A stretch of DNA of 32,855 nucleotides from Chromatiales bacterium (GCA_027021685.1 JALUTW010000341.1:1-32855); one strand, 5' to 3'. Numbered from the stretch's first letter, positions 7,488-26,200 are shown. The notes: a model not told the origin generated them from the letters alone. A program made the numbers and translations.

Positions 7488-8069
7488 ATGACAGACCTGG
7501 CCCTCATTCTCGTCAGCACCATCCTGGTCAACAACTTCGTCCTGGTGAAGTTCCTGGGCCTGTGCCCGTTCATGGGCGTCTCGCGCAAGCTGGAGACCGC
7601 CACCGGCATGGCCCTGGCCACCACCTTCGTCCTCACCCTGTCCTCGGTCACCAGCTACCTGGCCGACACCTACCTGCTGGCCCCGCTGGGACTGGAGTAC
7701 CTGCGCACCATCACCTTCATCCTCGTCATCGCCGTGGTGGTGCAGTTCACCGAGATGGTGGTGCGCAAGACCAGCCCGCTGCTGTACCAGGTGCTGGGCA
7801 TCTTCCTGCCCCTCATCACCACCAACTGCGCGGTGCTGGGCGTGGCACTGCTCAACGTCCAGACCCGCCACGGCTTCGTCGAGTCGGCGGTGTACGGGTT
7901 CGGCGCCGCGGTGGGCTTCTCGCTGGTGCTGATCCTGTTTGCGGCCATGCGCGAGCGCATCAACGCCGCCGACGTGCCGGCCCCGTTCCGCGGCGCATCC
8001 ATTGCGCTGGTGACCGCCGGCCTCATGTCCATCGCCTTCATGGGCTTCTCCGGCCTGGTCAAGGGCTGA
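7488..8069 (+). CDS. rnfA: Rnf electron-transport complex subunit A
   Basis: A 193-aa polytopic membrane protein with the RnfA/RsxA-type sequence ([21 protein letters not shown]...). It is the first gene of a block in rnfABCDGE order. GGAG lies 4 nt upstream. Confidence 0.95.
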
Positions 8070-8070
8070 G

Positions 8071-8649
8071 ATGCTGACAGCGCTGCTCGTCCTCACCCTC
8101 CTGGCCGTGACCTTCGGCCTGCTGCTGGGCTTCGCCGCGATCCGGTTCAAGGTCGAGGAGGATCCCATCGTCGACCAGATCGACCGCCTCCTGCCCCAGA
8201 CCCAGTGCGGCCAGTGCGGCTTTCCCGGCTGCCGTCCCTACGCCGAGGCCATCGCCCGCGGCGAGGCCGACATCAACCAGTGCCCGCCCGGCGGCGAGGC
8301 CGTGATCCAGGCCCTGGCCGACCTCCTGGGGCGCGACCCCAAGCCCCTCAACGAGGAACACGGCCAGCACAAGGAAAAGATGGTGGCGGTCATCGATGAA
8401 CAGGTGTGCATCGGCTGCACCCTGTGCATCCAGGCCTGCCCCGTGGACGCCATCCTCGGCGCGGCCAAGCAGATGCACACTGTCATCGCCGACGAGTGCA
8501 CCGGCTGCGAGCTGTGCATCCCGCCCTGCCCGGTGGACTGCATCCACATGGTGCCGGTGAAAAAGACCCTGGCCGACTGGGTCTGGCCCTATCCCGAGGA
8601 GGAGGAGGAACGGGCCGGGACACCCCCGGCGCGGGAGGCGGCGCCGTGA
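8071..8649 (+). CDS. rnfB: Rnf complex subunit B (Fe-S)
   Basis: It has an N-terminal TM segment, a CGQCGFPGC cluster and two 4Fe-4S ferredoxin motifs ([24 protein letters not shown]). Confidence 0.95.
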
Positions 8650-10304
8650 ACGGCTGTCCCGCCTGGTCGTTTCCCGGCGGCCTGGTGCTGGACGGGCACA
8701 AGGCCGAATCCACCCGCGAGCCGGTGGCCGCGGCGCCGGTGCCGCCGGTGCTGGTGCTGCCGCTGCAACAGCACATCGGCAACCCGGCGGTGCCGGTGGT
8801 GGAGGTGGGCCAGCGCGTGGCCCGCGGCCAGATGCTGGCGCGCGCCGACGAGTACGTGAGCGCCCCGGTGCACGCCCCCAGCTCCGGTACCGTGGCGGCC
8901 ATCGAGGAACGGCCGGTGCCGCATCCCTCGGGCCTGGCCGCGCCCTGTATCGTCATCGAAACCGACGGCGAGGACCGCCCGCATCCCGACTGCCGGCCGG
9001 TGCCCGACTACGAGGCCCTGGACCCCAGCGCCCTGCGCAACATCATCCGCGAGGCCGGCATCGTGGGCCTGGGGGGCGCCGGCTTCCCCACCTTCATCAA
9101 GCTCAACCCCGGGCCGGATCACGCGGTGGACACCCTGATCCTCAACGGTGCCGAGTGCGAGCCCTGGATCACCTGCGACGACATGCTCATGCGCGAGCGC
9201 CCGCGGGAGATCATCGAGGGCCTGAAGATCATGCGCCACGCCCTGCGCGCGCGGCGCTGCCTCATCGGGGTCGAAGACAACAAGCCCGAGGCCATCGCGG
9301 CCCTGGAGGGCGCGCTGGAAGCGGACGAGCGCGAGACCATCCGCGTCTGCCCGGTGCCCACGCGCTACCCGGCCGGCGGCGAGAAGCAGCTCATCCTGGC
9401 CCTCACCGGCAAGGCCGTGCCCAGCCAGCGGCTGCCGGTGGAGGTGGGCATCGTGTGCCACAACGTGGGCACCGCGGCGGCGGTGTACCGGGCCATCCAC
9501 CGCGGCGAGCCCCTGGTCTCGCGCCTGGTCACCGTCACCGGCCCGGCCATGGAGCGGCCGCGCAACCTGGAGGTGCGCGTGGGCACGCCGGTGAGCGACC
9601 TGCTGGCTCTGGCCGGGGCGCGCACCACCGACATCACCGAGCTCATCATGGGCGGGCCCATGATGGGCTTCGAGCTGGCCAGCGACGCGGTGCCCGTGAT
9701 CAAGACCACCAACTGTATCCTGGGCCTGGACCACGACCCCCACCGCCAGGCGGCGCCGGTGCGCCCCTGCATCCGCTGCGGCGAGTGCGCGCGGGTGTGC
9801 CCGGCGAAGCTGCTGCCGCAGGAGCTCTACTGGTTCGCCCGCGCCCGCGACATGGACAAGGTGCAGGACTTCCACCTGTTCGACTGCATCGAGTGCGGCT
9901 GCTGCGCCTACGTCTGCCCGTCCCACATCCCGCTGGTGCAGTACTACCGCTTCGCCAAGACCCGGATCTGGGCCCAGGAAAAGGAGCGGCGCAAGGCCGA
10001 CCTGGCGCGGCGCCGGCACGAGTTCCGCCTGCAGCGGCTGGAGCGGGAAAAGCACGAGAAGGAAGAACGCCAGCGGCGCAAGAAGGAACTGCTCAAGAAG
10101 GCCCGGGGCGGCGACGAGGCCGCCAAGCAGGCGGCCATCCAGGCGGCACTGGAGCGGGTCAAGACCCGGCGCGAGCAACAGCACGCCCAGGCGCGCAACG
10201 TGGAGCCGCAGACCGAGGCCCAGCGCAGGGCCCTGGCCGAGGCCGAGGAACGCCGCCGGCGCCTGGCCGGCGACAGCGACGGGGGCGACGACGATGCGGT
10301 TTGA
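8646..10304 (+). CDS. rnfC: Rnf complex subunit C (NADH/FMN-binding, 2x[4Fe-4S]) with Lys/Glu/Arg/Ala-rich C-terminal tail
   Basis: A GTG at 8646 overlaps the rnfB stop (GTGA). Motifs seen: [21 protein letters not shown] and [12 protein letters not shown]. The ORF-track start at 8406 lies out of frame inside rnfB and is rejected. Confidence 0.9.
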
Positions 10305-11331
10305 ACCCCGCCACAGTTCGCCCCACCTGGCCCCGGTGGGCAACGTCGGCCGGCTCATGTTCGCGGTGGTGGCGGCGCTGGTGCCGGGCACGGCCGCCGC
10401 GGCCTGGTTCTTCGGCCCCGGGGTGCTGGTCAACATGGCCTGGTGCGCGGCCACCGCCCTGGCGGCGGAGGCGGCGGTGCTCCGGCTGCGGCAGCGGCCG
10501 GTGCGTCCGGCCCTGGCCGACGGCAGCGCCCTGGTCACCGCCCTGCTGCTGGGCCTGGCCCTGCCGCCGCTGGCGCCGTGGTGGCTGCCGGTCATCGGCG
10601 CCGCCTTCGCCATCGTCGTGGCCAAGCATCTCTACGGCGGCCTCGGCTACAACCCCTTCAACCCGGCCATGGCGGGCTACGCCCTGCTGCTGGTGTCCTT
10701 TCCCCGCGAGATGGTGGCCTGGCTGCCGCCGGGCGACGGCGGCCTGGACCTGTCCGCGGTGCTGCACTACAGCCTCGCCGGCACGCTGCCCCCGGGCGCC
10801 ACCCTCGACGCCCTGACCCAGGCCACCCCGCTGGACACCCTGCGCACCCAGATCGGGCTGGGCCGGCCGGTGGCCGAGGCCATGGCGTCGCGGCCCGACC
10901 TGTTCGCCCGCGTGGGCGGTGTGGGCTGGGTCTGGATCAACGGCCTGTTCCTGCTGGGCGGACTGTGGCTGCTGTGGCGCCGCATCGCCGCCTGGCAGAT
11001 CCCCGCCGCCATGCTGGGCGCCCTGGGGCTGCTGGCCCTGGTGTTCTGGCTGCTGGACCCGGCGCGCCATGCGCCGCCCCTGTTCCACCTGTTCTCGGGC
11101 GCCACCATGCTGGGCGCCTTCTTCATCGCCACCGACCCGGTCACCGCCTCCACCACCCCGCGCGGGCGGCTCGTCTACGGCGCCGGCATCGGCGTACTGA
11201 TCTATGTCATCCGCACCTGGGGCGGATATCCCGACGGGGTGGCCTTCGCCGTGCTGCTCATGAACATGGCGGTCCCCACTATCGACCACTACACCCGGCC
11301 ACGGGTGTTCGGCGAGGAGAAAGGGCGGTGA
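10294..11331 (+). CDS. rnfD: Rnf complex subunit D (FMN-linked membrane subunit)
   Basis: A polytopic membrane protein with ...FFIATDPVTASTTPRGRLVYG..., the RnfD/NqrB flavinylation region. It overlaps the rnfC end by 11 nt. Confidence 0.95.
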   Translation: MRFEPRHSSPHLAPVGNVGRLMFAVVAALVPGTAAAAWFFGPGVLVNMAWCAATALAAEAAVLRLRQRPVRPALADGSALVTALLLGLALPPLAPWWLPVIGAAFAIVVAKHLYGGLGYNPFNPAMAGYALLLVSFPREMVAWLPPGDGGLDLSAVLHYSLAGTLPPGATLDALTQATPLDTLRTQIGLGRPVAEAMASRPDLFARVGGVGWVWINGLFLLGGLWLLWRRIAAWQIPAAMLGALGLLALVFWLLDPARHAPPLFHLFSGATMLGAFFIATDPVTASTTPRGRLVYGAGIGVLIYVIRTWGGYPDGVAFAVLLMNMAVPTIDHYTRPRVFGEEKGR

Positions 11332-11978
11332 ACGCGGTCCTGCGCAACATGATCGTGAGCGCAGTGCTGCTGGGCCTGTTCGCGGTCATCGCCGCCGCCC
11401 TGCTGGCCTGGACCCACGAGGCCACCGCCCCGCGCATCGCCGAGAACCAGCGCCAGGCGGTGCTGCGCCAGCTCCACGCCCTGGTGCCGCCCGCCAGTCA
11501 CGACAACGACCTGTTCACGGATGTCACCCATGTCCGCGCGCCCCGGGCACTGGGGAGCGATGAGCCGTTGCCGGTCTATCGCGCCCGCCGCGGCGGCCGG
11601 CCGGTGGCGCTGGTGCTCACCGCCATCGCGCCCGACGGCTACAATGGTACAATCCGCCTGCTGGTGGCGGTGCGCCATGACGGCACCCTGCTGGGTGTGC
11701 GGGTGGTGGACCACCGCGAGACCCCCGGCCTGGGCGACGCCATCGACGAGCGCAAGTCGGACTGGATCCTGGGCTTCGCCGGCAAGTCGCTCGCGGATCC
11801 CCCGCCGGAGCAGTGGCGGGTGAAGCGCGACGGCGGCGTGTTCGACCAGTTCACCGGCGCCACCATCACCCCGCGCGCCGTGGTGGCCGCGGTGCGGCGG
11901 GCGCTCGAGTACTTTCAGCACCACCGGGACGAGCTGTTCGCCGCCCCGGCCGTGACCGAGGACAGCGCGCACCCATGA
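11328..11978 (+). CDS. rnfG: Rnf complex subunit G (FMN-binding)
   Basis: A GTG at 11328 overlaps the rnfD stop (GTGA). It has an N-terminal TM anchor and the FMN-attachment motif [14 protein letters not shown]. Confidence 0.9.
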
Positions 11979-12667
11979 ACCGGGGACCATACGGCGAGAT
12001 CGCCTACCAGGGCCTGTGGGGCAACAATCCGGCCTTCGTGCAGATCCTCGGCCTGTGCCCGCTGCTGGCGGTGACCAGCACCGTGGTCAACGCCCTGGGC
12101 CTGGGCCTGGCCACCACCCTGACGCTCATCGCCTCCAATGTCATCGTTTCCGCCATCCGCCAGTGGGTGCGGCCGGAGATCCGGATCCCGGTCTTCGTCA
12201 TGATCATCGCTGCCGTGGTCACCGCCATCGAGATGGCCATGAAGGCCTGGTTCTTCGATCTCTACAACATCCTGGGCATCTTCATCCCCCTCATCGTCAC
12301 CAACTGCACCATCATCGCCCGCGCCGAGGCCTTCGCCTCCAAGCACCCGGTGGGGCAGTCCCTGGCCGACGGCCTGTTCATGGGCCTGGGCTTCACCGGG
12401 GTGCTGCTGCTGCTGGGCGCCATGCGCGAGATGCTGGGCTTCGGCACCCTGTTCTCCCAGGCCCACCTCATGTTCGGCGAGGCCCTGCGCGACGTGGCAT
12501 TGACCGTGATCCCCGACTACCGCGGCTTCCTGCTGGCCATCCTGCCGCCGGGGGCCTTCATCGGCCTGGGCCTGCTCATCGCGCTCAAGAACATCATCGA
12601 CGCCCGGCTGGAGCGCCGGCGCCGTCCGGTGCCCGTCACCGGACCGGCCCCGGCCCACGGCCACTGA
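11975..12667 (+). CDS. rnfE: Rnf complex subunit E
   Basis: An ATG at 11975 overlaps the rnfG stop (ATGA). The N-terminus [21 protein letters not shown] is typical of RnfE/RsxE. Confidence 0.95.
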
Positions 12668-12710
12668 ACCCCGGCCCCGGGGCGGCCGGGAGGAGAGCGG
12701 AACCGCGCGC

Positions 12711-13346
12711 GTGGACAAGAAGAAGATCAACGAAATCTTCCGCCGCCTGAAAAAGGCCAACCCCGCCCCCACCACGGAGCTCAAGTACCGCACCCCTTTC
12801 CAGCTCCTCATCGCCGTGATCCTGTCGGCCCAGGCCACCGACCGCAGCGTCAACCAGGCCACGCGCGAGCTGTTCAAGGTGGCGCCCACGCCGCAGAAGA
12901 TGCTGGCCCTGGGCGAGGCGGGACTGAAGCGCTACATCAGGACCATCGGCCTGTTCAACACCAAGGCCCGCAACATCATCAGGACCTGCCGCATCCTGCT
13001 GGACAAGTACAACGGTCGCGTGCCCCGCGACCGCAAGGCCCTGGAGGCCCTGCCCGGCGTGGGCCGCAAGACCGCCAACGTCATCCTCAACACCGCCTTC
13101 GGCGAACCCACCATCGCCGTGGATACCCACATCTTCCGCGTCGCCAACCGCACCGGCCTGGCCCCGGGCAAGACCCCGCTGGCGGTGGAGCGGGCACTGC
13201 TCAAGGTGGTGCCCGAACAATACAAAAAGGACGCCCATCACTGGCTCATCCTCCACGGGCGTTACACCTGTCTCGCCCGCAAGCCCCGCTGCGGGTCCTG
13301 TGTCATCGAAGACCTGTGCGAGTACCCGGACAAGGTGTACGACTGA
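12711..13346 (+). CDS. nth: Endonuclease III
   Basis: It has the HhH-GPD signature (LPGVGRKTANVILN) and a C-terminal 4Fe-4S Cys ligand set (CLARKPRCGSCVIEDLC). It starts at a GTG and follows rnfE as in the E. coli rsx-nth operon. Confidence 0.95.
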   Translation: MDKKKINEIFRRLKKANPAPTTELKYRTPFQLLIAVILSAQATDRSVNQATRELFKVAPTPQKMLALGEAGLKRYIRTIGLFNTKARNIIRTCRILLDKYNGRVPRDRKALEALPGVGRKTANVILNTAFGEPTIAVDTHIFRVANRTGLAPGKTPLAVERALLKVVPEQYKKDAHHWLILHGRYTCLARKPRCGSCVIEDLCEYPDKVYD

Positions 13347-13725
13347 ATCCCGCCGGGTTTCTGCACCAGAAGGGCCCGTCATCCTCGCCCCGCCCCCGGC
13401 ACCAGCGCCGGAACCCCCGCCCGTCCCCCGATGACCTATTCATGGCCCGGTTTGTGGAAATGGGTCACACATTTTCCGCGGAATGAAATGGATCTCCGAT
13501 CAACCGGGTCTGTATACTCTGGGCGGTCCTGTTCCCATGGGATGCCGGCGCCAAGAAACCGGCACGGGAAGAACCACCGTCGCAATCGCAGTGTTCGGGA
13601 TGAAACTTTATTCCGCTGCCCGGGTCAGACGCCCCAGGTGACGGGATGACCGCTCCTCATTCACCGACCACAAGCACAACAAGGGCTGCGGCCCGTTTTT
13701 TACAACTCGCTATGGAGGCAAGTTC

Positions 13726-14070
13726 ATGTCCAACAAGACCAGCAAGACCCTGACCCTCGCCATGGGGACCGCGTTCGCCGCCGGCCTGGCGGCCAGCAAC
13801 GTGGCCAGCGCCGCCGAGGCCGGCGCCAACCCCTTCGCCCTCAACGAGCTGCCCGGCGGCTACATGCAGCTGGCCGGCAAGGAAGGACAGTGCGGCGAAG
13901 GCAAGTGCGGCGCCGGCAAGAAGGCCAGCGCCAAGTCGAAGGAAGGCCGCTGCGGTGAAGGCAAGTGCGGCGAGGGCAAGTGCGGCGCCGGCAACAAGGC
14001 CAAGGCCGAAGACAAGGCCAAGCAGGAAGGCAAGTGCGGCGAGGGCAAGTGCGGCAACATGAAGAAGTGA
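13726..14070 (+). CDS. hvfA: Sec-exported RiPP precursor with seven EG[KQR]CG motifs (HvfA/oxazolin-like metallophore precursor)
   Basis: A strong SD (GGAGG, 13714-13718) lies 7 nt before the ATG. The signal peptide is [29 protein letters not shown]|AE. The mature part is K/G/A/E-rich with Cys at residues 56, 61, 76, 81, 86, 104 and 109, all in EGxCG. It sits directly upstream of the DUF692 and DUF2063 genes. Confidence 0.85.
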
Positions 14071-14077
14071 GCCGCGC

Positions 14078-14947
14078 ATGACCGAACGTACCGTGAACCA
14101 TCCGGTTCACGGCGCCGGGCTGGGACTGCGGCGGGCCCTCATGGGTCCGCTCGCAGGCCGGCCCACCCCCCAGGTGGACTTCTGGGAGGTGGCGCCCGAG
14201 AACTGGATCGGCGTCGGCGGCCGCTACGGGCGCTGGTTCCGCCAGATGACCGAGCGGCACCCCTTCATCTGCCATGGCCTGTCCCTGTCCATCGGCGGGC
14301 CCACCCCCCTGGACGAGGCCTTCCTGCGGCGGCTCAAGCGCTTCCTGCACGAGCACGGCATCCGCTGCTACAGCGAGCACCTGAGCTACTGCAGCGACGA
14401 CGGCCACCTCTACGACCTGCTGCCCATTCCCTTCACCGAGGAGGCGGTCCGTTACGTGTCCGCGCGCATCCGCCGGGTGCAGGACATCCTGGAGCAGCGC
14501 ATCGCCATGGAGAACGTCTCCTATTACACCGTCGCTCCCGGCAGCGAGATGTCCGAGATCGACTTCATCAACGCGGTGCTGGAGGAGGCCGACTGCGACC
14601 TGCTGCTGGACGTCAACAACATCTACGTCAACAGCGTCAACCACCGCTACGACGCCGAGGCGTTCCTCAACGCCCTGCCAGGCGAGCGCATCGTCTACAT
14701 CCACGTGGCCGGCCACTACTACGAGGCCGACGATCTCATCGTGGACACCCATGGCGCCGACGTCATCGATCCCGTGTGGGCCCTGCTGGAGAAGGCCTAC
14801 GCCCGCTTCGGTGTCATCCCCACGCTGCTGGAACGCGACTTCAACCTGCCGCCCCTGGACGAACTGCTGCAGGAAGTGGACATGATCGCCCGCCTGCAGC
14901 ACAAGTGGGAGGAGAACACCCGTGACGCACTCCGCCGGCAAGGCTGA
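14078..14947 (+). CDS. hvfB: DUF692/MbnB-family multinuclear non-haem iron oxidase (MNIO), RiPP maturase
   Basis: A 289-aa protein whose layout I recognise as DUF692 (GLGLRR..., ...FWEVAPENW..., [24 protein letters not shown]...HVAGH). It starts 7 nt after the precursor stop. Confidence 0.88.
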
Positions 14948-15704
14948 GCGGCCGGCCTTCACGGCCCACCAGTACGCCTTCACCGCCCACATCCGCGACC
15001 CGGAGCGCCACCCGCGGCCGCCCGGCGTGGAGGCCCGGCGCATGAACATCTACGTGGAGCTGTTCTACAACAACGTGGAAGACTTCATGGCCTCCTCGTA
15101 TCCCGTGCTGCGCTCCATCACGCCGGACGAACGCTGGCACGCCATGATCCGGGACTACTTCGCCCGCCACCGGGCCACCACGCCCCTGTTTCCGGAGATG
15201 CCGCGCGAGTTCCTCCACTACCTGGAACACGAGCGCGCGCCGGACCCGGAAGATCCGCCCTTCCTGCTGGAGCTGGCCCACTACGAGTGGGTGGAGCTGG
15301 CCCTGGCCATGGCCGATGACGAGCCGGTGCCGCCGGGCGTGGATCGCGACGGTGACCTGCTCTCGGGCCGGCCGGTGCTCTCGCCCCTGGCCTGGCCCCT
15401 GGCCTACCGCTACCCCGTGCACCGCATCGGGCCCGACTTCCAGCCGGCGGAGGAAGGCACCGCCCCCACCTTCCTGCTGGTCTACCGCGATGCCGGGGAC
15501 GAGGTGCACTTTCTCGAGATCAACCCCGTCACCGCACGCCTGCTGGAGCTGGTACAGGAAGAGAGCGGCCGCAGCGGGCGAGAGTTGTTGGAACGGATCG
15601 CCGCCGAACTGGGCCACGCCGATCCCGCCGCCGTCGTTCAGGGGGGGCTGGAGATCCTGGAGGACCTGCGCGACCGCGGCGCCATTGCCGGGGTGCGCGG
15701 CTGA
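14922..15704 (+). CDS. hvfC: DUF2063-family partner protein (MbnC/HvfC/BufC-like RiPP recognition/chaperone subunit)
   Basis: A GTG at 14922 is preceded by GGGAGGAG (14907-14914) and overlaps the MNIO gene by 26 nt. The N-terminal region ([12 protein letters not shown]..., [20 protein letters not shown]) matches my memory of DUF2063 proteins, which always pair with DUF692. Confidence 0.82.
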
Positions 15705-15734
15705 CGCCACCGCCGACGGGAAGGACACACCGCC

Positions 15735-16361
15735 ATGCGCATCGTGCTGCGCCTGCAGGACCTGCTGGACCGCACCCGCGTCGCCGACTTCGTCGCGCTG
15801 CTGCTGTTGCGCATCTACCTGGCGCCCATCTTCATTCAGGCCGGCTGGGGCAAGCTCACCCACCTGGAGGACACCGCGGCCTGGTTCGGCAACCCCGACT
15901 GGGGCCTGGGCCTGCCGACACCCATGCTCATGGCCGTGCTCGCCGGCGCCGCCGAGTTCTTCGGCGGCATTGCGCTGCTGGTGGGCCTCGCCACGCGCTG
16001 GTTCGCCATCCCCCTCATGGTCACCATGGTGGTGGCGGCGGCCACCGCCCACTGGCACAACGGCTGGCACGTGCTGCCCGAGACGCAGCTGACCGTGCCC
16101 TGGGAGTGGCGCAAGGACAAGATCGAGGCCGCCATCGAGCGGCGCGACCGGGCGCGCGAAATCCTGCGCGAGCATGGCAACTATGAATGGCTGACCGAGG
16201 CCGGCCCCATCACCGTCCTCAAGAACGGGATCGAGTTCGCCGCCACCTATTTCCTCATGCTGCTGGTGCTGTTCTTCTTCGGCGCCGGACGCTGGCTGAG
16301 CATCGACTACTGGATGGCACGCCACTTCGGCCGCATTCGCGCCGGTCCCGCCGCCGGGTGA
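15735..16361 (+). CDS. DoxX-family membrane protein with a His-rich inserted loop (TAHWHNGWH)
   Basis: A DoxX-like 4-TM pattern (RIYLAPIFIQAGWGKL..., AEFFGGIALLVGLATRW...) with a roughly 60-aa soluble insertion before the last TM. It is co-directional, 30 nt after the DUF2063 gene. Confidence 0.85.
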   Translation: MRIVLRLQDLLDRTRVADFVALLLLRIYLAPIFIQAGWGKLTHLEDTAAWFGNPDWGLGLPTPMLMAVLAGAAEFFGGIALLVGLATRWFAIPLMVTMVVAAATAHWHNGWHVLPETQLTVPWEWRKDKIEAAIERRDRAREILREHGNYEWLTEAGPITVLKNGIEFAATYFLMLLVLFFFGAGRWLSIDYWMARHFGRIRAGPAAG

Positions 16362-16417
16362 CGGCTTGCAGGCGCGCCCGGAATGGCCACCGGCAAACGC
16401 CGGCGTATAATGCCTCC

Positions 16418-16846
16418 ATGGCCGAGCCCATCGTCATCGACGCCGAGGTCTGCAACGGCAGCCCCCGGCTCAACGGCACCTCCCTCACGGTGTACGAGAT
16501 CGTCGCCGCCTGCGACGAGATCGGCCGCCGGGCTTTCTTGCGCGAATATCCCGAGGTGGAGCCGGACGACCTCGACGCCGCAATCGACTTCTGCCGCACA
16601 CGCCGCTGCGACGGTGTCGGGGCCCACTGCGACGGCTGCAGCCTGCGCGCCGCCGACGACGGCCTGCACTCGGTGGCCGACTTCGTGCGCCAGTACCGCG
16701 AGATCCGTTTTCTCGACTCCGACGAGGTCATCGCCAGCCAGGGCGAGGGGATCATCACCCTGCCCGGCACCGCCGCGGACATGGAAGACCACTGGCGGGG
16801 CGAGAACGGCTGGGAAATTGCACGCCGCCTCGGCGGTGCGCCCTGA
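16418..16846 (+). CDS. DUF433-domain protein with a Cys-rich C-terminal extension
   Basis: The N-terminus IVIDAEVCNGSPRLNGTSLTVYEIV...EYPEVEPDDLDAAIDFC fits the DUF433 pattern. It is followed by C-x5-C-x7-C-x2-C (CRTRRCDGVGAHCDGC) and about 70 further residues. The ATG at 16418 lies 6 nt after a TATAAT (16406-16411). Confidence 0.7.
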   Translation: MAEPIVIDAEVCNGSPRLNGTSLTVYEIVAACDEIGRRAFLREYPEVEPDDLDAAIDFCRTRRCDGVGAHCDGCSLRAADDGLHSVADFVRQYREIRFLDSDEVIASQGEGIITLPGTAADMEDHWRGENGWEIARRLGGAP

Positions 16847-18402: not shown

Positions 18403-19068
18403 TCACTTGCCCTGGAGGTAGCGGACGTCGTCGAAGGTGAGGACCCAGCGGGGGTAGAACACCACCAGCAGGGCGGTGAGCATGCCGGTGATGAAGGCCT
18501 CGGGAAAGAACATGAGCGGCAGGTAGCTCAGGTAGGAGCGGGTGAGCTGGCCCAGGCTGTAGGCCTCCGCCGCCAGCAGCAGGCCGAAGGCGATCAATAC
18601 GGTGGCGGTGAGCGCCAGGCCGGCGCCGAAGAAGGCGTTGGCGAAGATGTAGACGAAGAAGTGGTTGGGCAGGCAGCGCTCCACCAGGCGGAAGATGCCC
18701 CAGGCCGCCAGCGCCGGCACCAGGCCCATGACCAGGCCGTTGAGCGGCAGCGCGGCCCAGTCGGCCTGGCCGCCGGCGGCCATGGCCAGCAGCACGAGGT
18801 TGAGCCCGACGAAGGCGAGCTGCCAGCGGAACATGAGGGTGAGCAGCATGGCACCCAGGTAGTGGTACTGGAGCCCGGGAAACGGCATGGTGGTGACGTG
18901 CCACAGCACGATGAGGAACACGCAGGCCCCGAGAAAGGCGTGGCTGCGCGAGCTGTCCAGCAGCACCTTCCACGGCGCAGTGCGGATGACCACGGCCCAG
19001 GCGGCGAGCCACGGCACCCCGGCGGCCCAGAGCCAGGCCTCGGGCACCAGTTGTGCCGGGATGTTCAT
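18403..19068 (-). CDS. Small polytopic membrane protein (about 6 TM; possibly CbiM/ECF-substrate-component-like)
   Basis: Only the last 221 codons of ORF 18403-20934 look real (MNIPAQLVPEAWLWAAG...). The ATG at 19068 overlaps the stop of the upstream channel gene (ATGA). The protein is hydrophobic throughout. The function call comes from weak memory of similar proteins. Confidence 0.75.
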   Translation of the reverse strand: MNIPAQLVPEAWLWAAGVPWLAAWAVVIRTAPWKVLLDSSRSHAFLGACVFLIVLWHVTTMPFPGLQYHYLGAMLLTLMFRWQLAFVGLNLVLLAMAAGGQADWAALPLNGLVMGLVPALAAWGIFRLVERCLPNHFFVYIFANAFFGAGLALTATVLIAFGLLLAAEAYSLGQLTRSYLSYLPLMFFPEAFITGMLTALLVVFYPRWVLTFDDVRYLQGK

Positions 19069-21419
19069 GGCGGAGCGGGGCGCCGCGGCCCCGCCGGCGG
19101 GCATGCATCGGGATCCCAGGAGCGCAGGTGGAGATCGCGCTGGGGAAACGGGATCTCGATGCCGTGCTCGCGAAACATGGCGTCGATGGCGAAGTTGAGA
19201 TCGCTCACCACCATGAGCCTGCGATCGATGTTGCGGATGTACGCCCGCAGCTCGAACTCCAGGGCGCTGTCCCCGAAGGCCCGGAACAGCACCCACGGCT
19301 CGGGCATGGTGCCGTCGGTGATGACGTCCGGGTGCTCGCGCGCCACCTGCAGCAGCAGGCGCTTGACGAGCTGGGTGTCGGAGCCGTAGGCCACGCCCAC
19401 CGGCACCCGCACCCGGCCGCGGGGATCGCCCAGCATCCAGTTGGTCACCTGGCCGGAGATGAGATCGCTGTTGGGCACGATGACGTCGGCCTTGTCGAAG
19501 GTCTGGATCTGGGTGGAACGGATGCGGATCTTGCGCACGTAGCCCTCGGTGTCGCCCACCGAGATCCAGTCGCCGGTGCGGATGGGGCGCTCGAACAGCA
19601 GGATCAGGCCGGAGACGAAATTGTTGACCACGTTCTGCAGGCCGAAGCCGATGCCCAGCGACAGGGCGCCGGCGACGATGGCCAGGTTGGTGAACTCGAA
19701 GCCGGCCACGCCCAGCCCCACCAGGGCGGCGATGGCCACGCCGCTGTAGCCGGTGATGGCGGCGATGGCCTCGCGGGCGCCGTGATCGAGCCGGGTCTGC
19801 GGCAGCCAGCGCCGCTCCAGCCGCGTGCGGAACCAGCCCGCCACCGCCAGCAGCAGGGTGAACGCCAGCGCACCCAGCAGCAGCCGGGAGGGCACGATGG
19901 TGAGCGAGCCCACGGTGAAGCCCTCCACCAGGTAGCGGTAGGCCTCCTGCAGCACCGGGTCGGAGATGCCCCAGATCTTCAGCAGCAGCCACGCGAACCC
20001 GGCCCAGATGGCGGCCAGGGTCAGCAGCCGCAGGGAACGCAGGCCGGGGAAGTGGTCGCCGGCCTTGAGGCCCAGGGCCCGGCGCACCGCGCGGTGCCAG
20101 TCCTCGGTGCCGTGCTCCAGCCCCTGGTACAGCTCCTGGAACATGCGGTTGACCAGCACCAGCAGGCCCACCGCACCCAGCGTGCCGATGACCACCAGGA
20201 GGATGCGTTCGGACAGGTTGCGCCAGCCCCACCACTCCGCCACCAGCACCATGACCAGCAGGCCCTGCAGGGCCAGCCGCCGCCACAGCGCGCGGGCGAA
20301 ACGGGGAAAACCGCCCACCAGCCACACCGCCCACATGAGGTTGGCGACGAAGAAGCCGGCGAACACCCCGCGCGCGAGCAGGAACGCCGTCTCCGGCAGG
20401 CGCCGTTCGAGGATGGTGGCGAACAGCAGGTAGCCCACGTACAGCAGCGTGGCCAGCACCTTGAGCCGCCGGGCCAGGGGGACGGCCACCCCGCCCGGCA
20501 CTTCGACGAAGGACTGCGCCGGCGGCAGCGGCTGCAGGAACAGGTGGATGGCGGCCAGCAGCAGGACGTAGAACGGCAGGCCGTAGGCGGCCACGCTGCC
20601 CAGCGGCGCCGGGTCCGCGCCCGCGGTGGTGGCCAGGGCAAAGCCCGCGGCCGCCGAGGCGAACAGCAGGTGGGGTGCGTAGTGGGCCAGGCTCGCGAAC
20701 AGGGCGCGGGTGAAGCGGGCCGACAGGGTGGCCGCGGTGAAATGATGGGCCAGCCACAGCAGCAGGCCGCGGCGCAGCCACAGGCCGATGGCCGCGGCCA
20801 GGGCCAGGAGCAGCACCAGCAGCCCGAGGCGGCCCAGGGGCATGCGCCACAGCGCGCCCAGCTCGCGCCACAGCTGCACCGCGGTGTCGCGCCAGATGAC
20901 CGGCTCGCGCAGGGTCTCGGCCGCCAGCGACCACACGGGCGGGCCGCGGGCCAGCAGGCGCTGCGCCAGCAGGGCCTTGTGCCGCTCGCCCACCTTGGCC
21001 AGCAGCTCCTCGGCCTGCAGCGACAGCAGCCGGCAGGAGGCCTGGCGCTTCTCCAGCGCCGCCTTCTCCCGGGCCAGGGCCGCGCGCTTGCGCTTGACCT
21101 CCGGCGGCTCGGTGGCGGCGGGCTCGCCCAGGCTCTCGATGCTCTTCTCCAGGTCCGCCAGCGCCGTGCTCACCTCCTCCACGCAGGCGCCGGCGGCGGT
21201 CTTGGCACTGGTGAGGCGGGCCAGCCAGTCCTTGAGCCGGCCCTCGTCGTAGCGGCGCCGCCGGAGGTCGCGCTCGATGCCCCTGAGTTCCTTTTTCAGC
21301 GCCTTGATGTCGGGGCCCGGCGGGGCCTCGTCGGCCGCCGGCGCCGCCGGTGCGGCCAGGAGCAGGCCCAGCAGCAGCGGCACGGGGTGCAGCAGGGCGA
21401 TGGCGCGGAGGGACGGCAT
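19065..21419 (-). CDS. MscK/MscM-like mechanosensitive channel (MscS family with large N-terminal periplasmic coiled-coil and extra TM domain)
   Basis: The C-terminal MscS core is present (GALSLGIGFGLQNVVNNFVSGLILLFERPIRTGDWISVG...). The N-terminal signal peptide (MPSLRAIALLHPVPLLLGLLLAAPAAPA) begins at the ATG at 21419; the ORF extension up to 21866 runs into a repeat element. Confidence 0.9.
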   Translation of the reverse strand: MPSLRAIALLHPVPLLLGLLLAAPAAPAADEAPPGPDIKALKKELRGIERDLRRRRYDEGRLKDWLARLTSAKTAAGACVEEVSTALADLEKSIESLGEPAATEPPEVKRKRAALAREKAALEKRQASCRLLSLQAEELLAKVGERHKALLAQRLLARGPPVWSLAAETLREPVIWRDTAVQLWRELGALWRMPLGRLGLLVLLLALAAAIGLWLRRGLLLWLAHHFTAATLSARFTRALFASLAHYAPHLLFASAAAGFALATTAGADPAPLGSVAAYGLPFYVLLLAAIHLFLQPLPPAQSFVEVPGGVAVPLARRLKVLATLLYVGYLLFATILERRLPETAFLLARGVFAGFFVANLMWAVWLVGGFPRFARALWRRLALQGLLVMVLVAEWWGWRNLSERILLVVIGTLGAVGLLVLVNRMFQELYQGLEHGTEDWHRAVRRALGLKAGDHFPGLRSLRLLTLAAIWAGFAWLLLKIWGISDPVLQEAYRYLVEGFTVGSLTIVPSRLLLGALAFTLLLAVAGWFRTRLERRWLPQTRLDHGAREAIAAITGYSGVAIAALVGLGVAGFEFTNLAIVAGALSLGIGFGLQNVVNNFVSGLILLFERPIRTGDWISVGDTEGYVRKIRIRSTQIQTFDKADVIVPNSDLISGQVTNWMLGDPRGRVRVPVGVAYGSDTQLVKRLLLQVAREHPDVITDGTMPEPWVLFRAFGDSALEFELRAYIRNIDRRLMVVSDLNFAIDAMFREHGIEIPFPQRDLHLRSWDPDACPPAGPRRPAPP

Positions 21420-21436
21420 GGGCGTTATGTTACCCC

Positions 21437-21795
21437 GACAGTTGCATGAAATTCGTGATGAATCGTGCTTTCGTGCCCCGATGGCAGGCGCCGGGGAGCT
21501 GCCCGGTGCACACCCCCTCGCCCCGACCCTCTCCCCCGCGACGCGGGGAAGAGGGGGACGGGAAAAACCGGTCGCGGCGCACGGGGTGCCGGGGAGTTGC
21601 CCGGTGCCCCCCCTCGCCCCGACCCGGGGGGACGGAAAACCGGTCGCGGCGCCGGGGCCCGCCGCGCGCGAACAGGCGGTCCCTCTCCCGCCCCGAGGGG
21701 GAAAGGGTGAGGGGACGGGAACACGGTTTTTTCCTGCTCGTGCAGCCTTCCCCACTCTGATTCCCTTTATCCCTGTGGGGAGGAAAGAATTCATG
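21437..21795 (+). repeat. Composite G/C-palindrome repeat element, copy A (contains an internally duplicated partial unit)
   Basis: It aligns by eye along its length with the reverse complement of 31946-32192. Shared parts are the terminus GACAGTTGCATGAAA, the module CCGGGGAGCTGCCCGGTGCACACCCCCTC.CCCCGACCCTCTCCCCCGCGA.GCGGGG.AGAGGGGGACGG.AAAAACCGGTC, the second module ...GGGTGAGGGGA.CGGAACACGG.TTTTTTCCTG, and an end with GGGGAGGAA(A)G followed by ATG. Confidence 0.7.
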
Positions 21796-21862
21796 CAATA
21801 TAAACAGGTTGCCCCAGGCAAGGGGGCGTGACGCAGGGCGCCGTGCGGTTCCCGCACCGGGG

Positions 21863-21940
21863 CCATATAGGCCCTACATGGTTCCTATATAGGGGCTACA
21901 TAGGGACTATATAGTAACTATGTAGTACCCTATATAGCAT
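21863..21940. repeat. Seven palindromic octamers CTAYRTAG phased at about 11 bp in an AT-rich island
   Basis: The octamers start at 21864 (cATATAG), 21874 (CTACATg), 21885 (CTATATAG), 21896 (CTACATAG), 21907 (CTATATAG), 21918 (CTATGTAG) and 21930 (CTATATAG). The spacings are 10, 11, 11, 11, 11 and 12. The array lies immediately downstream of the argG stop. Confidence 0.8.
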
Positions 21941-23250: not shown

Positions 23251-26200
23251 TCAGCGCCGCTTGCGGGCGCTGCGGCGCAGGCGCGCCAGCAGGCGCCGGG
23301 CCAGGTCGCCGAACAGCTCGGTCTGGGTGGGGTGCGGGTGGATGGCGTGGGCCACCTGCTCCAGGGTCAGCCCCGCGCTCACCATCATCACGCCCTCGCC
23401 GATGAGGGTGTCGGCGTGGTCGGCCAGGAAGTGCACGCCCACGATGCGGTGCGAATCCTTGTCCGCCACCAGCTTGATGAGGCCGTGGCGCTCGTCGTTG
23501 ATCATGGCCTTGGCGTCGATGTTCATGGGCACCTTGACCTCCACCGCGTCGATGCCGCGGGCCCTGGCCTGCTCCACCGACAGGCCCACGAAGGCGGCCT
23601 CGGGCCGGGTGAAGATGACGCCGCAGTCCCTGGTCTCGTCGTAGGCCATGTCCTCGCCGGCGATGACCGCCGCCGCCACCCGGCCCTGCTGGGCCGCGGT
23701 GTGGGCCAGCATGTAACCGCCGATGACGTCGCCCACGGCGAAGATGTGCGGCACCGAGGTGCGGCAGCGCTCGTCGGCCCTGATGACGCCGTTCTCCACT
23801 TCCACCCCGGCCTTGTCCAGCGCCAGCGGCTCCAGCACCGGCCGCTTGCCAGTGGCCATGAGCACGTGGTCGCAGGTGAAGCTGCGGTTCTTGCCCTGCG
23901 CATCGGTGTAGCTCACCTTCATGGCCCCGGGCTCGCCCTTGATGGACCTGACCTGGACCCCGGTCTCGATGGCCAGGCGCGGGTCGTCGTTGAGCACCGC
24001 GGTGAGCTGCGCCGCCACTTCCGGCTCCACCTCGGCCAGGATGCGCTCGCGCCCCTCCAGCAGCAGCACCCGGGTGCCGAAGTCCTGGAAGATCTGGGCC
24101 ATCTCCACGCCGATGGCACCGCCGCCGATGACCCCCAGGCGCCGGGGGCGCTCCCTGAGCGACCAGACCGTGTCGGAGGTGAGCACGCCGCCGCTCTCGA
24201 GCCCCTCGCGGGCGCCGGGGATGGGCGGCACGAAGGGCGGCGCGCCGGTGGCGATGACGGCACAGGCGAACGAGACGCGCCGGCCCTTGCCGCCGGTGCC
24301 CGGCCGCGGGCGCACGTGCGGGTCCTTGACGTTGCCCGAGGTGTCCACGAACACGTGGTGGTCGTCCTCGAAGCGGGCGAAGCCCTGGATGACGTCGATC
24401 TTCACGCCCTTGTCGGTGTTGAGCGCCATCTGGCCGCGGGTCTCCAGCACCTTGCGCCGGGTCTGCTCCAGCCGCTTCCAGTCCAGCTCGGGCTTGCCGG
24501 TCTTCACCCCCAGGTGGGCATCAGTGGTACGGTCGCGGATGCGGTCGGCCGCCGCGCGCCAGGCCTTGGACGGGATGCAGCCGCGCCACAGGCATTCGCC
24601 GCCCGGGAACGGGGCGTCGTTGATCATGGCCACCCTGAAACCGTGCTGGGCCAGGTCGCGGGCGCAGTCCTCGCCGCCGGGGCCGCCGCCGATGACCACC
24701 ACGTCGTAGTCCCACTCGCCCGCGGGCAGGGTGAAGCCGGAGGGCGCCGGGGCCGGGGCCGCCGCGCCGGGCGCGGCGCCCTCGACCCAGGCGGGGTTCT
24801 CCACCAGTTCGCGGAAGCGGTTGAGGAACTTGGCGGCGTCGGCGCCGTTGATGATGCGGTGGTCGGCGGTGATGGTCACCGGCATCCCCTGCGGGCCCTG
24901 GCTGGCGATGGCGAAGATGGCCGAGGTGCCCGGCGAGGGAATGGCGTCGAACAGCGCCACCCCCAGCATGCCCATGTTGGAGATGGTGAAGGTGGGGTTG
25001 GAATACTCGTCGGGCTTGAGCCGCCGGATGCGGGCACGGGCCACCAGGTCGCGCCAGTTGGCGTTGAGGTCGGCCAGGTCGCGGTTGACCACATCGCGCA
25101 GCACCGGCACCACCAGGCCCATGCCCTCGGTCTCCACCGCCAGGCCGATGTCCACCTGCTCGCGCTCGACGATGCGGTCCTCGTGCTGGTAGACGGCGTT
25201 GACCTTGGGGAAGTCGCGGATGGCCAGGGCCGCGGCCTTGGCCAGGGTCACGGTGAGGGAGAAGCCGTGCTGCTTGGAGATCTTCTTCAGGGTGTCGGGA
25301 TTGATGTTCACCGTGACCCGGAACAGGGGCATGGAGAGGGAATATTCCATGCTGTGGGCCACCGCCTTCTCCATGGCATCCATGGGGCGGCCCTCGCCCG
25401 GCACCTGGTAGATGCGGCGCACCGCGGTCTTCTGGGTCTCGGCGTTGAGCACGTCGGCGGCGACGATGACGCCGCCGGGGCCGGTGCCGGTGATGCTGTT
25501 GAGATCGATGCCGTGGGCCCCGGCCAGCTGGCGCGCGTAGGGGGTGGCCTTCGCGGTGCGCGGGCGCGGCGCCGGGGTCGCCCCGGGCGGCTGGGCCGGA
25601 ATGCGGGTCTTGGGCTTGGCCGTGCCCGGCGGCTCGGGTTTCGCCCGCGGCGCCTCCGGCGGCGGCGGCGCGGCGGCGGTGCGGGCGCGGCGCACGTCCC
25701 TGACCTGGGACGGCTCGGGCACCAGCCAGGCGATGGGCTCGCCCACGGGCACCACCGAGTCCGCCTCCGCCAGCGGCCCGGACAGATAACCCTCGCGGAA
25801 CACCTCCACGTCCATGATGGCCTTGTCGGTCTCCACCTGGGCCACCACGTCGCCGCGCTCCACCTTGTCGCCGGGCTGCTTCTCCCAGCTCACCACCACG
25901 CCCTCGGTCATGGTGTCCGAGAGCTTGGGCATCTTGATGGGATGGGCGCCCTCGGCCGGGGCCTCCTCTTCGGCGGCCGGGGCCGCGGGTTCGGCGGCTG
26001 CCGGTCCGGAGGGCTCCGCGGCGGCCGCGGGCTCCGGCGCGGCGGCCGGCGGCGCCCCGCCCTCCTCGCGCACCTCGTCGGCGCTGGCCACCAGGTAGCC
26101 GATGGGCTCGCCCACGGGCACCACCGCGTCCACCGGCGCCAGCGGCCCGGACAGGTAGCCCTCGCGGAACACCTCCACGTCCATGATGGCCTTGTCGGTC

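Follow-up and report, generated by a model that had tools for sequence, protein, structure and literature searches.

A complete hvfABCX operon in a Chromatiales bacterium, predicted to make a periplasmic copper-binding 5-thiooxazole peptide

Conversion of Cys to 5-thiooxazole, with its loss of 4 Da, absorbance near 305 nm and alkylatable thiol, has been shown for the precursors FonA, HvfA, NgoA and MmrA (PMC13097082; bioRxiv 10.64898/2026.06.05.730506; PMC12538549), and Cu(I) binding has been shown for homologous products (PMC13097082; PMC12538549; PMC11252979). The hvf-type modification was reassigned in 2026 by two groups from oxazolone/thioamide to 5-thiooxazole (PMC13097082; bioRxiv 10.64898/2026.06.05.730506): one study revised both oxazolin and gonophorin (PMC13097082), and oxazolin was independently reassigned by the Rosenzweig laboratory (bioRxiv 10.64898/2026.06.05.730506). 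The reaction depends on a mixed-valent diiron cofactor (bioRxiv 10.64898/2026.07.17.739211). In the fontiphorin system, FonABC, seven 5-thiooxazoles are installed on seven EGKCG-type repeats and the resulting peptide takes up as many as 4 Cu (PMC13097082). Sec is known to export HvfA, whose signal peptide is removed by signal peptidase I (PMC11252979).

Here we describe an operon of this kind in a 32,855-nt stretch of DNA from a Chromatiales bacterium (GCA_027021685.1 JALUTW010000341.1:1-32855; hereafter the window). A first-pass annotation of the DNA had held that no member from such organisms was characterised, which is incorrect since fontiphorin from Fontimonas thermophila (PMC13097082) and bulbicupramide from a marine Microbulbifer (PMC12538549) are both of the EGKCG type.

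The operon and its described relatives

Four ORFs on the + strand, hvfA, hvfB, hvfC and hvfX, lie co-directionally between positions 13726 and 16361, with a 7-nt gap, a 26-nt overlap and a 30-nt gap between successive genes, reproducing the tightly packed arrangement reported at first pass. All four have GC3 values of 0.91-0.94, like the true genes of the window (70% GC), and these four genes are also called on the source contig. Each of the encoded proteins exceeds a curated NCBIfam threshold (equivalog models for HvfB, HvfC and HvfX and a domain model for HvfA), which bears out the proposed hvf-type MNIO RiPP operon with a DoxX-type hvfX. Among the features that mark an hvf-type captophorin locus, those found here are an HvfB-type MNIO, an adjacent DUF2063/RRE partner, a precursor gene directly 5', and hvfX, which is frequent and not obligatory. 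The nearest loci are in Ectothiorhodospiraceae, Thiohalobacter and Thiogranum MAGs, in agreement with the high-GC gammaproteobacterial host originally suggested; the close relatives of this host are mostly assigned to sulfur-oxidising lineages. Across 80 related loci, hvfB and hvfC are adjacent in every case, and an EGKCG-type precursor gene lies just 5' in nearly all. The site of the operon behind rnfE-nth is kept as well. The locus is a normal, complete chromosomal copy of a very widespread hvfABCX operon.

Like fonABC, the window operon belongs to a free-living gammaproteobacterium, combines an MNIO with a DUF2063/RRE partner, and has a precursor with seven repeats (PMC13097082), although the fon cluster lacks the DoxX/HvfX gene that the window possesses. 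The hvfXABC operon of nontypeable H. influenzae has the same four gene families and a Sec-exported EGKCG-repeat precursor (PMC11252979), and the window HvfB, HvfC and HvfX pass NCBIfam models that were built on that system. The two differ in gene order, with H. influenzae doxX (NTHI1440) neighbouring NTHI1441 at the opposite side of the precursor gene (PMC11252979) and hvfX coming last in the window operon, and in that H. influenzae is a pathogen and the host here an environmental bacterium. The gonophorin cluster of Neisseria (ngo; NMB2140-2145 in N. meningitidis) likewise comprises DoxX, a precursor, an MNIO and a DUF2063 partner and gives a 5-thiooxazole product, but it carries sigma and anti-sigma genes within the operon whereas there are none within the window.

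Also related are the bufferin operons buf1 and buf2 of Caulobacter vibrioides, which likewise combine an MNIO and a DUF2063 partner with a Sec-exported precursor, in some cases with DoxX as well, and whose products carry the thiooxazole modification, protect against copper stress and are under ECF SigF control (PMC11626156). Unlike the EGKCG-type repeat precursor found here, those of the bufferins are folded, being either DUF2282 or 6/12-Cys proteins. We rejected a bufferin assignment: the BufB model NF050167 scores 276.6 bits, below its cutoff of 310, and the precursor has no Pfam match and so is not a DUF2282 protein. Methanobactin systems share the PF05114 superfamily, the four-electron oxidation of Cys and a Cu(I) ligand, but are distinguished by oxazolone/thioamide groups, a leader peptide, an MbnC partner, dedicated export and uptake genes, and induction by copper starvation. 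This assignment was rejected as well, with the MbnB model TIGR04159 at 43.1 bits, short of its cutoff of 325, a DUF2063 partner, and a precursor with a Sec signal.

Precursor, enzyme pair and predicted product

The first gene, hvfA (13726-14070, + strand), is preceded by a Shine-Dalgarno sequence, GGAGG, that can be read directly at 13706-13710 (+ strand). It encodes a precursor of 114 residues with exactly seven Cys, at positions 56, 61, 76, 81, 86, 104 and 109, each of them within an EG[KQR]CG motif, as had been described from the first reading of the sequence. The sequence differs from that of FonA, and five of the motifs are EGKCG, one is EGQCG and one is EGRCG. The absence of any other Cys also sets it apart from H. 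influenzae HvfA, which has six motif Cys and an N-terminal disulfide pair. FonBC accepts Arg, Ala and Thr at the third position of the motif, with EGQCG (Gln) outside the variants assayed (PMC13097082); EGQCG occurs naturally among relatives, in 10 of ~500 motifs.

The N-terminus has the form expected of the Sec signal that had been proposed for the precursor, with a Lys-containing n-region, a hydrophobic stretch over residues 8-24 and then A-S-A|A-E, as judged by reading of the sequence and a hydropathy scan. The predicted signal peptide comprises residues 1-29 (ASA|AE) and is followed by a conserved leader-like segment and then by the seven-motif core. Orthologous precursors encoded upstream of hvfB in the related loci have in common a segment, NPFAMxELSSGYM, and carry 2-17 EGKCG-type motifs each. 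The HvfA-family domain model NF050137 matches at 50.7 bits (cutoff 19.5), whereas the equivalog model NF050188 remains below its cutoff (41.3 versus 95 bits), so that the precursor belongs to the family without being orthologous to H. influenzae HvfA.

The second gene, hvfB (14078-14947, + strand), encodes a 289-residue MNIO, which profile searches place, in keeping with the initial assignment, in PF05114 (MbnB_TglH_ChrH; E = 2.9e-108) and in the HvfB equivalog NF003818 (448.6 bits, cutoff 360). Its relatives at 70-80% identity are found at >580 genome loci. The diiron MNIO structure 3BWW, an H. somni homologue close to H. influenzae HvfB, aligns to the full-length protein (2.7e-80), and the alignment keeps the motifs GLGLRR, NNIY, (V/I)AGH, VDTHG and LLERDF. 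The FonB specificity motifs Arg15/Arg16 and Asp249/Phe250 have putative counterparts in GLGLRR and ERDF; these, like the putative counterparts of the published HvfB residues N175, D242 and H244, were matched at the level of motifs.

The third gene, hvfC (14922-15704, + strand), has a GTG start with a Shine-Dalgarno sequence, GGAGGAG, 7 nt upstream (14909-14915, + strand). Its 260-residue product combines an N-terminal DUF2063 domain (PF09836, E = 3.8e-25), as anticipated, with a C-terminal RRE-type NGO1945_C domain (PF22106, E = 1.6e-36), and matches the HvfC model NF050145 at 329.7 bits (cutoff 142). It is only distantly similar to NGO1945, the PME1 partner of the gonophorin system (PDB 3DEE, E = 1.3e-13). 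By homology, HvfC would be the PME1 partner, joining HvfB in an active complex and providing recognition of the precursor, and HvfB would convert every motif Cys to 5-thiooxazole.

The pathway predicted from these homologies would begin in the cytoplasm, where an HvfB-HvfC heterodimer would bind HvfA, with the RRE domain of HvfC probably engaging the conserved leader-like segment. This complex would use O2 and its mixed-valent diiron site for a four-electron oxidation of every motif Cys, giving seven 5-thiooxazoles. A loss of 4 Da at each of the seven Cys would take the mature 85-residue peptide from 8468.5 to ~8440.3 Da, and the modified peptide should absorb near 302-305 nm. The first-pass annotation had proposed MbnBC-like chemistry: the oxazolone/thioamide product is superseded, as HvfBC, FonBC and NgoBC install 5-thiooxazoles (PMC13097082; bioRxiv 10.64898/2026.06.05.730506), whereas the predicted shift of -4 Da per Cys and the absorbance at ~300-305 nm stand. 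The modified peptide would then be exported by Sec and cut by signal peptidase I after Ala29, and in the periplasm its thiooxazole thiolates, together with nitrogen donors, would coordinate probably three or four Cu(I) ions and act as a buffer against copper toxicity.

For this locus, the modification of the precursor, its export, the binding of copper and the regulation of the operon are all assigned by analogy with the homologous systems, and homology gives the best support to a periplasmic product that binds copper. We consider it very likely that the product of the chromosomal hvfABCX operon is a captophorin of the EGKCG/oxazolin-fontiphorin type, a 5-thiooxazole peptide that binds copper in the periplasm.

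A conserved putative promoter motif and the question of role

A putative ECF-sigma-type promoter lies at 13602-13629 (+ strand), ~97 nt 5' of the hvfA ATG, and consists of a -35-like element, GAAACTTT, a 14-nt spacer and a -10-like hexamer, GTCAGA. The pattern has a single match in the window, where none is expected from 100 shuffles. When both strands of the 80 related loci (1.66 Mb) were searched with GAAACTT-N14-16-GTCNNA, there were 26 matches, every one of them directly upstream of hvfA and on the coding strand. The conserved form of the motif is GAAACTT-N15-GTCNNA, and GTCGTA and GTCATA are commoner at the -10-like position than the hexamer of the window. Its layout is similar to that of the Neisseria sigmaE consensus, GTMAGBWTT-N12-13-CGTCTAAH (PMC2893595). 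The element probably serves as the ECF-type promoter of the hvf operon, which would be transcribed by a sigma factor encoded elsewhere, with envelope oxidative stress or metal stress as likely triggers. Homologous operons are under ECF sigma control in H. influenzae (RpoE2; PMC7907618), Neisseria (PMC2893595) and Caulobacter (PMC3511200).

A relaxed search allowing two mismatches found no further site, and hence no second regulon member, in the window. A metagenome scan with the exact pattern GAAACTTT-N14-GTCGTA was discarded as a route to the regulon since its 120 matches were mostly chance occurrences in unrelated DNA and too noisy; two lay before HvfA-like genes, one before another MNIO gene (locus L180) and one, discussed below, before a gene for a secreted MsrB-like protein (locus L157). 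An Rfam scan of the window gave no matches, which leaves the 380-nt leader region without known riboswitches or sRNAs; a search there for inverted repeats or operators was negative as well. No intrinsic terminator was found on the + strand after hvfX.

Even in the species studied so far, no settled physiological role has emerged for EGKCG peptides; bulbicupramide gives only slight copper protection, with no expression in culture (PMC12538549). One alternative to copper buffering is that the product mainly shields the envelope from oxidants (hypochlorite, peroxide or thiol stress), with the thiooxazole thiols and HvfX forming a redox system of the periplasm or membrane and copper binding being secondary. 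Regulation in the homologous systems is consistent with this: the H. influenzae hvf operon is under ECF sigma control, induced by HOCl in a strictly RpoE2-dependent manner, in a regulon that includes periplasmic methionine sulfoxide reductases (PMC7907618), and the homologous Neisseria cluster is a sigmaE operon controlled together with msrAB (PMC2893595), from a promoter whose layout the window motif resembles. In addition, 5-thiooxazole thiols are reactive and readily form disulfides (PMC13097082), a DoxX protein of M. tuberculosis is cited in PMC11252979 and PMC7907618 as part of a thiol oxidoreductase complex, and the metagenome match at L157, among the few that are not random, lies 28 nt 5' of the MsrB-like gene, although this is one case in a noisy scan. 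[quoted passage not shown] On balance, we regard oxidant defence as the main function as possible but unlikely.

HvfX and the neighbouring genes

The last gene, hvfX (15735-16361, + strand), encodes a 208-residue protein that matches the DoxX family (PF07681) and the HvfX model NF050144 (221.5 bits, cutoff 80). This agrees with its initial description as a DoxX protein, whereas the inserted loop included in that description is not peculiar to this protein: residues 19-194 match positions 1-164 of the 165 in NF050144, loop included. The loop carries TAHWHNGWH, as noted at first pass, but a reading of this segment as a three-His site is not borne out, as H108 is nearly unique to the window (present in 2 of 120 close homologues) and H112 is restricted to one sub-clade. 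Over 42 orthologues from the related loci, only H106 and G110-W111 of this segment are conserved.

Within its own sub-clade, the protein has a more extensive signature, H106-W-x-N-G-W-H112-x-L-P-E...TVPWEW, which comes after the third helix. HWxNGWH is present in all of the 120 closest HvfX homologues, and an alignment of 40 sub-clade members shows no variation at H106, W107, G110, W111, H112, E116, W123, E124 and W125; the other sub-clade is without H112 and the LPE...TVPWEW segment. A sequence search of the PDB with HvfX gave no match even at E = 1. An AlphaFold2 model built from the 40-sequence alignment has a mean pLDDT of 67 and a pTM of 0.48, with residues 110-126 below pLDDT 50, and given this low confidence and the unreliable motif region we draw no structural conclusion from it.

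HvfX is a four-helix inner-membrane accessory that is probably dispensable for modification. A more active part can be envisaged, in which the H-W-x-N-G-W-H...E...W-E-W residues serve to load the peptide with copper or unload it, or to link its thiooxazole thiols with the quinone pool. The invariance of the nine motif residues points in this direction, as does the position of hvfX 3' of hvfC in 45 of the 80 related loci. From the sequence and the model helices, the charge distribution is compatible with a four-helix, N-in, C-in topology. The motif would then be exposed to the compartment that holds the mature peptide, presumably the periplasm. The NCBIfam name, 'Cu-binding RiPP maturation protein', also fits, although it is a name and not a test. 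Several observations argue the other way: the DoxX protein BufD1 of Caulobacter is dispensable for both modification and copper protection (PMC11626156), the fon (PMC13097082) and mmr (PMC12538549) clusters have no DoxX gene and yet give fully modified, copper-binding products, the remaining 35 related loci, mostly from Nitrosomonas, lack an adjacent hvfX, and the motif is incomplete in the other sub-clade and falls in the unreliable segment of the model. We judge an active role of this kind to be unlikely. A broader proposal, that in this group of Gammaproteobacteria the operon is a vertically inherited core stress set behind rnfABCDGE-nth with a dedicated ECF-type promoter, and that this HvfX sub-clade is a real partner of the peptide, for copper hand-off or as a quinone-linked keeper of its thiols, seems to us decidedly doubtful.

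A methanobactin-like chalkophore, secreted to scavenge copper for cuproenzymes and possibly serving the neighbouring NnrS, would fit with the superfamily that HvfB shares with MbnB, the Cu(I) binding of homologous products (PMC13097082; PMC12538549) and an NnrS gene 700 bp downstream, but is largely refuted by gene context and highly improbable, given the low MbnB score, the lack of MbnC, the lack of TonB-dependent receptor, MATE exporter and periplasmic binding protein genes nearby (with no TonB receptor or MATE gene anywhere in the window), a precursor with a Sec signal peptide rather than a cleaved leader and no protease gene, a 5-thiooxazole rather than oxazolone/thioamide modification, and the induction of homologous operons by excess metal or oxidants and not by copper starvation (PMC13097082; PMC7907618; PMC3511200). 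The suggested link to NnrS is also unsupported in its own right: NnrS is missing within 6 kb of hvfB in all 80 related loci, as is the DUF433 gene, and for this reason we rejected both as parts of the system. The DUF433 gene has its own sigma70-like promoter.

The captophorin class to which we assign the operon comprises >24,000 loci, and the cluster type is present in about half of Pseudomonadota reference genomes. With all four genes named by curated annotation models and several family members biochemically characterised, the locus carries little weight as a discovery; what it adds for specialists is the conserved ECF-type promoter motif 5' of hvfA, the two HvfX sub-clades and the kept position after rnfE-nth. 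For EGKCG peptides, the chief open question concerns the signal that induces them, and a sharply defined ECF-type motif in free-living Gammaproteobacteria offers a handle on that signal, on the cognate sigma factor and on its regulon. Similarly, HvfX divides into two sub-clades, and the pair of invariant His and the Trp/Glu-rich segment of one of them provide concrete residues for probing the role of DoxX; a partnership of HvfX with the peptide, if true, would for the first time assign a function to the DoxX component of captophorin clusters.

Family assignment and layout of the operon

The first-pass annotation had read positions 13726-16361 of the window as an hvf-type RiPP-metallophore cluster, and its family placements were borne out by profile searches. 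HvfB matches Pfam MbnB_TglH_ChrH (2.9e-108), HvfC matches DUF2063 and NGO1945_C, and HvfX matches DoxX, and all three exceed the cutoffs of the corresponding NCBIfam models (HvfB, 448.6 bits against 360; HvfC, 329.7 against 142; HvfX, 221.5 against 80). HvfB also matches the diiron MNIO structure 3BWW (2.7e-80), with the RR, NNIY, VDTHG and ERDF motifs kept, and HvfC matches the NGO1945 structure 3DEE. A bufferin-type assignment (BufB model, 276.6 bits against a cutoff of 310) and a methanobactin-type one (MbnB model, 43 bits against 325) were both rejected. The window operon is a further member of a well-known kind; more than 24,000 loci combining an MNIO with the DUF2063/RRE partner PME1 have been reported, spread over roughly half of the Pseudomonadota reference genomes (Gadgil et al., PMC13097082), and the usual RiPP-MNIO-DUF2063-DoxX gene sets were described in a 2025 survey (PMC12452194).

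The ORF calls reproduce the annotated positions and spacing exactly: hvfA (13726-14070, + strand, 114 aa), hvfB (14078-14947, +, 289 aa), hvfC (14922-15704, +, 260 aa, GTG start) and hvfX (15735-16361, +, 208 aa) follow one another with 7 nt between the first two, a 26-nt overlap of hvfB with hvfC, and 30 nt before hvfX. Gene calling on the source contig, from an ENA metagenome assembly, gave the same four. Their GC3 of 0.91-0.94 marks them as real genes in a window of ~70% GC. The ribosome-binding site of hvfA is GGAGG, and the overlapping GTG start of hvfC is supported by a GGAGGAG 7 nt upstream.

When genomes were scanned with HvfB, at least 600 matches were obtained, and the best 80 (68-80% identical) were examined; their source labels, from both MAGs and isolates, include Ectothiorhodospiraceae, Thiohalobacter, Thiogranum, Thiohalophilus, Chromatiales and Nitrosomonas, among others. 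Among these best 80, hvfC adjoins hvfB in every locus, an HvfA-like gene is found nearby by tblastn in 65, and hvfX lies downstream in 45, the loci that lack an adjoining hvfX being mostly labelled Nitrosomonas.

The precursor and its expected modification

As annotated, HvfA contains seven Cys (positions 56, 61, 76, 81, 86, 104 and 109), all within EGKCG (five), EGQCG (one) or EGRCG (one) motifs. Its N-terminus reads, on sequence and hydropathy, as a Sec signal peptide with a predicted A-S-A|A-E cleavage site. The NCBIfam KCGExKCG domain of the HvfA family scores 50.7 bits (cutoff 19.5), and the strict H. influenzae HvfA equivalog model falls below its cutoff (41.3 against 95). In a motif scan of the best 80 of the at least 600 loci, nearly every one has an EGKCG-type precursor upstream of hvfB, with 2-17 motifs each (EGKCG in 440 of ~500, EGQCG in 10, EGRCG in 3) and a conserved NPFAMxELSSGYM after the signal peptide, and the window precursor is a typical member among them. 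In some of these orthologous precursors (L035, L036, L040, L048, L053, L054, L060, L063, L066, L070 and L080) EGKCG blocks are separated by an EF-hand-like insert (MDADGDGKVTKDEF...KDKNADGVLDA), which is absent from the window's precursor; Buf_EGKCG/EF-hand fusions have already been described (PMC12452194), in the survey that defined the 'Buf_EGKCG/oxazolin' signature on about 2,000 precursors.

Among the characterised products is fontiphorin of Fontimonas thermophila, a free-living gammaproteobacterium. Its seven EGKCG-type repeats bear seven 5-thiooxazoles, and the peptide can bind as many as four Cu; alkylation-assisted HMBC revealed 5-thiooxazoles in oxazolin and gonophorin too, a class for which the name captophorins was coined (PMC13097082). 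The Rosenzweig group likewise reassigned oxazolin to 5-thiooxazoles (bioRxiv 10.64898/2026.06.05.730506) and reported that a mixed-valent diiron cofactor is needed (bioRxiv 10.64898/2026.07.17.739211). Bulbicupramide, from a marine Microbulbifer, is another EGKCG-type product and is Cu(I)-selective (PMC12538549). The oxazolone/thioamide chemistry invoked in the first-pass annotation, and its statement that no free-living member had been characterised, are therefore outdated; 5-thiooxazole chemistry leaves its practical predictions intact, each modified Cys being 4 Da lighter and the product absorbing near 300 nm. At motif position 3 the fontiphorin enzymes FonBC tolerated Arg, Ala and Thr (PMC13097082); Gln at this position is natural in related precursors.

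HvfX and the genomic neighbourhood

The inserted loop with TAHWHNGWH that had been singled out in HvfX is present, and since the HvfX family model covers it, it is not a peculiarity of the window protein. Of TAHWHNGWH, only H106 and G110-W111 are conserved throughout 42 orthologues from related loci; H112 together with LPExxLTVPWEW marks one sub-clade (14 of 43 sequences, the window's included), the other having GWLAIAEGSG in its place. All 120 closest database homologues belong to the window's sub-clade and have HWxNGWH, and the middle His of TAHWHNGWH occurs in two of them. The charge distribution suggests a four-helix, N-in, C-in topology that would put the motif on the periplasmic side. 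The AlphaFold2 model is too poor for use in the motif region, and a PDB sequence search found no relative. 'HvfX family Cu-binding RiPP maturation protein', the NCBI and UniRef label of close homologues, is a name only; in Caulobacter, neither the modification nor copper protection requires the DoxX protein BufD1 (PMC11626156).

HvfX phylogeny is out of step with that of HvfB. L002, whose HvfB is nearest to the window's (80%) among the best 80 loci of at least 600, encodes an HvfX of the other sub-clade (hit from near 7701; 55% identity to window HvfX, 15735-16361), and window HvfX shares 73% identity with the HvfX of Thiohalophilus thiocyanatoxydans (database homologue P0046), a species whose hvfABC locus (L045) lacks an adjoining hvfX. 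These mismatches suggest exchange or relocation of this accessory gene.

Directly upstream of hvfA lies rnfABCDGE-nth (7488-13346, +), as also in L002, L004, L007, L009 and other related loci. Among the best 80 of at least 600, nth is upstream in 34 and rnfE in 28, only in loci without a Nitrosomonas or Burkholderiales label; the place of the RiPP cluster behind rnf-nth is thus conserved on the chromosome, with nth and hvfA adjacent in 34 of these 80. This position, and a composition of the hvf region like that of its flanks, point to a vertically inherited gene set rather than an island. NnrS is near hvfB in none of the 80 loci, which leaves the link to NnrS once considered without comparative support. 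Between hvfX and nnrS lies a gene (16418-16846, +) for a DUF433 protein of 142 aa whose C-terminal extension is Cys-rich, behind its own sigma70-like promoter (TGGCCA-16-TATAAT, 16384-16411); as none of the 80 related loci carries such a gene, it was probably inserted locally and has no connection with hvf.

Elsewhere in the window, the gene for a 933-aa MscS-type mechanosensitive channel (19065-21866, -) is overlapped at its 3' end by one for a CbiM-family membrane protein (18403-19104, -; assigned to PF01891 on the source contig); L002, the closest of the best 80 loci of at least 600, also has a CbiM-like gene (62% identity). Genes for E1-alpha (27363-28373) and E1-beta (26364-27344) are followed by one uninterrupted ORF of ~1024 aa (23251-26325, -), an apparent E2-E3 fusion in which two lipoyl domains, an E3-binding domain and a 2-oxoacid dehydrogenase E2 catalytic domain are joined by an Ala/Pro linker to a complete dihydrolipoyl-dehydrogenase-like part (Pyr_redox_2, Pyr_redox_dim, CLWRGC redox motif). 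GC3 stays at 0.92-1.0 across the whole ORF, with no stop codon between the parts; the architecture is unusual and may reflect an assembly error.

Putative promoter and proposed role

Within the 380-nt nth-hvfA region lies a putative ECF-type promoter (GAAACTTTATTCCGCTGCCCGGGTCAGA, 13602-13629). The pattern GAAACTT-N15-GTCNNA has one match in the window (none expected from 100 shuffles), and the slightly looser GAAACTT-N14-16-GTCNNA has 26 when both strands of 1.66 Mb from the best 80 related loci are searched. Each of the 26 is on the coding strand immediately upstream of hvfA, whose start codon is some 90-135 nt away. Judged by its sequence, the element has the form of an ECF-sigma promoter, and its layout parallels the sigmaE consensus GTMAGBWTT-N12-13-CGTCTAAH that drives the homologous doxX cluster of Neisseria (PMC2893595). 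ECF control has been demonstrated experimentally for homologues in H. influenzae (RpoE2, HOCl-induced; PMC7907618) and Caulobacter (SigF; PMC3511200). Gene and domain annotation found no sigma gene in the window, and in a metagenome scan for other regulon members with the exact motif, chance matches swamped the signal. Of two sites of the form GAAACTTT-N14-GTCGTA, one precedes a secreted MsrB-like gene by 28 nt (L157, 1653-1680, +) and the other an MNIO gene by 72 nt, with no EGKCG precursor between (L180, 354-381, +); both fit an RpoE2/SigE-like regulon, as single cases from a noisy scan.

A physiological role in defending the envelope against oxidants, instead of in copper buffering, is the main live alternative; methanobactin-like copper acquisition, against which the gene context speaks, is effectively excluded. 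As for the pathway itself, it is most likely that an ECF sigma factor would transcribe the operon under stress control and, by strong homology, that cytoplasmic HvfB-HvfC would oxidise all seven Cys, giving 5-thiooxazoles, that Sec would export the peptide with cleavage after Ala29, and that the 85-aa product (computed mass 8468.5 Da, about 8440.3 Da on modification) would bind Cu(I) in the periplasm, with HvfX as a presumed accessory protein.
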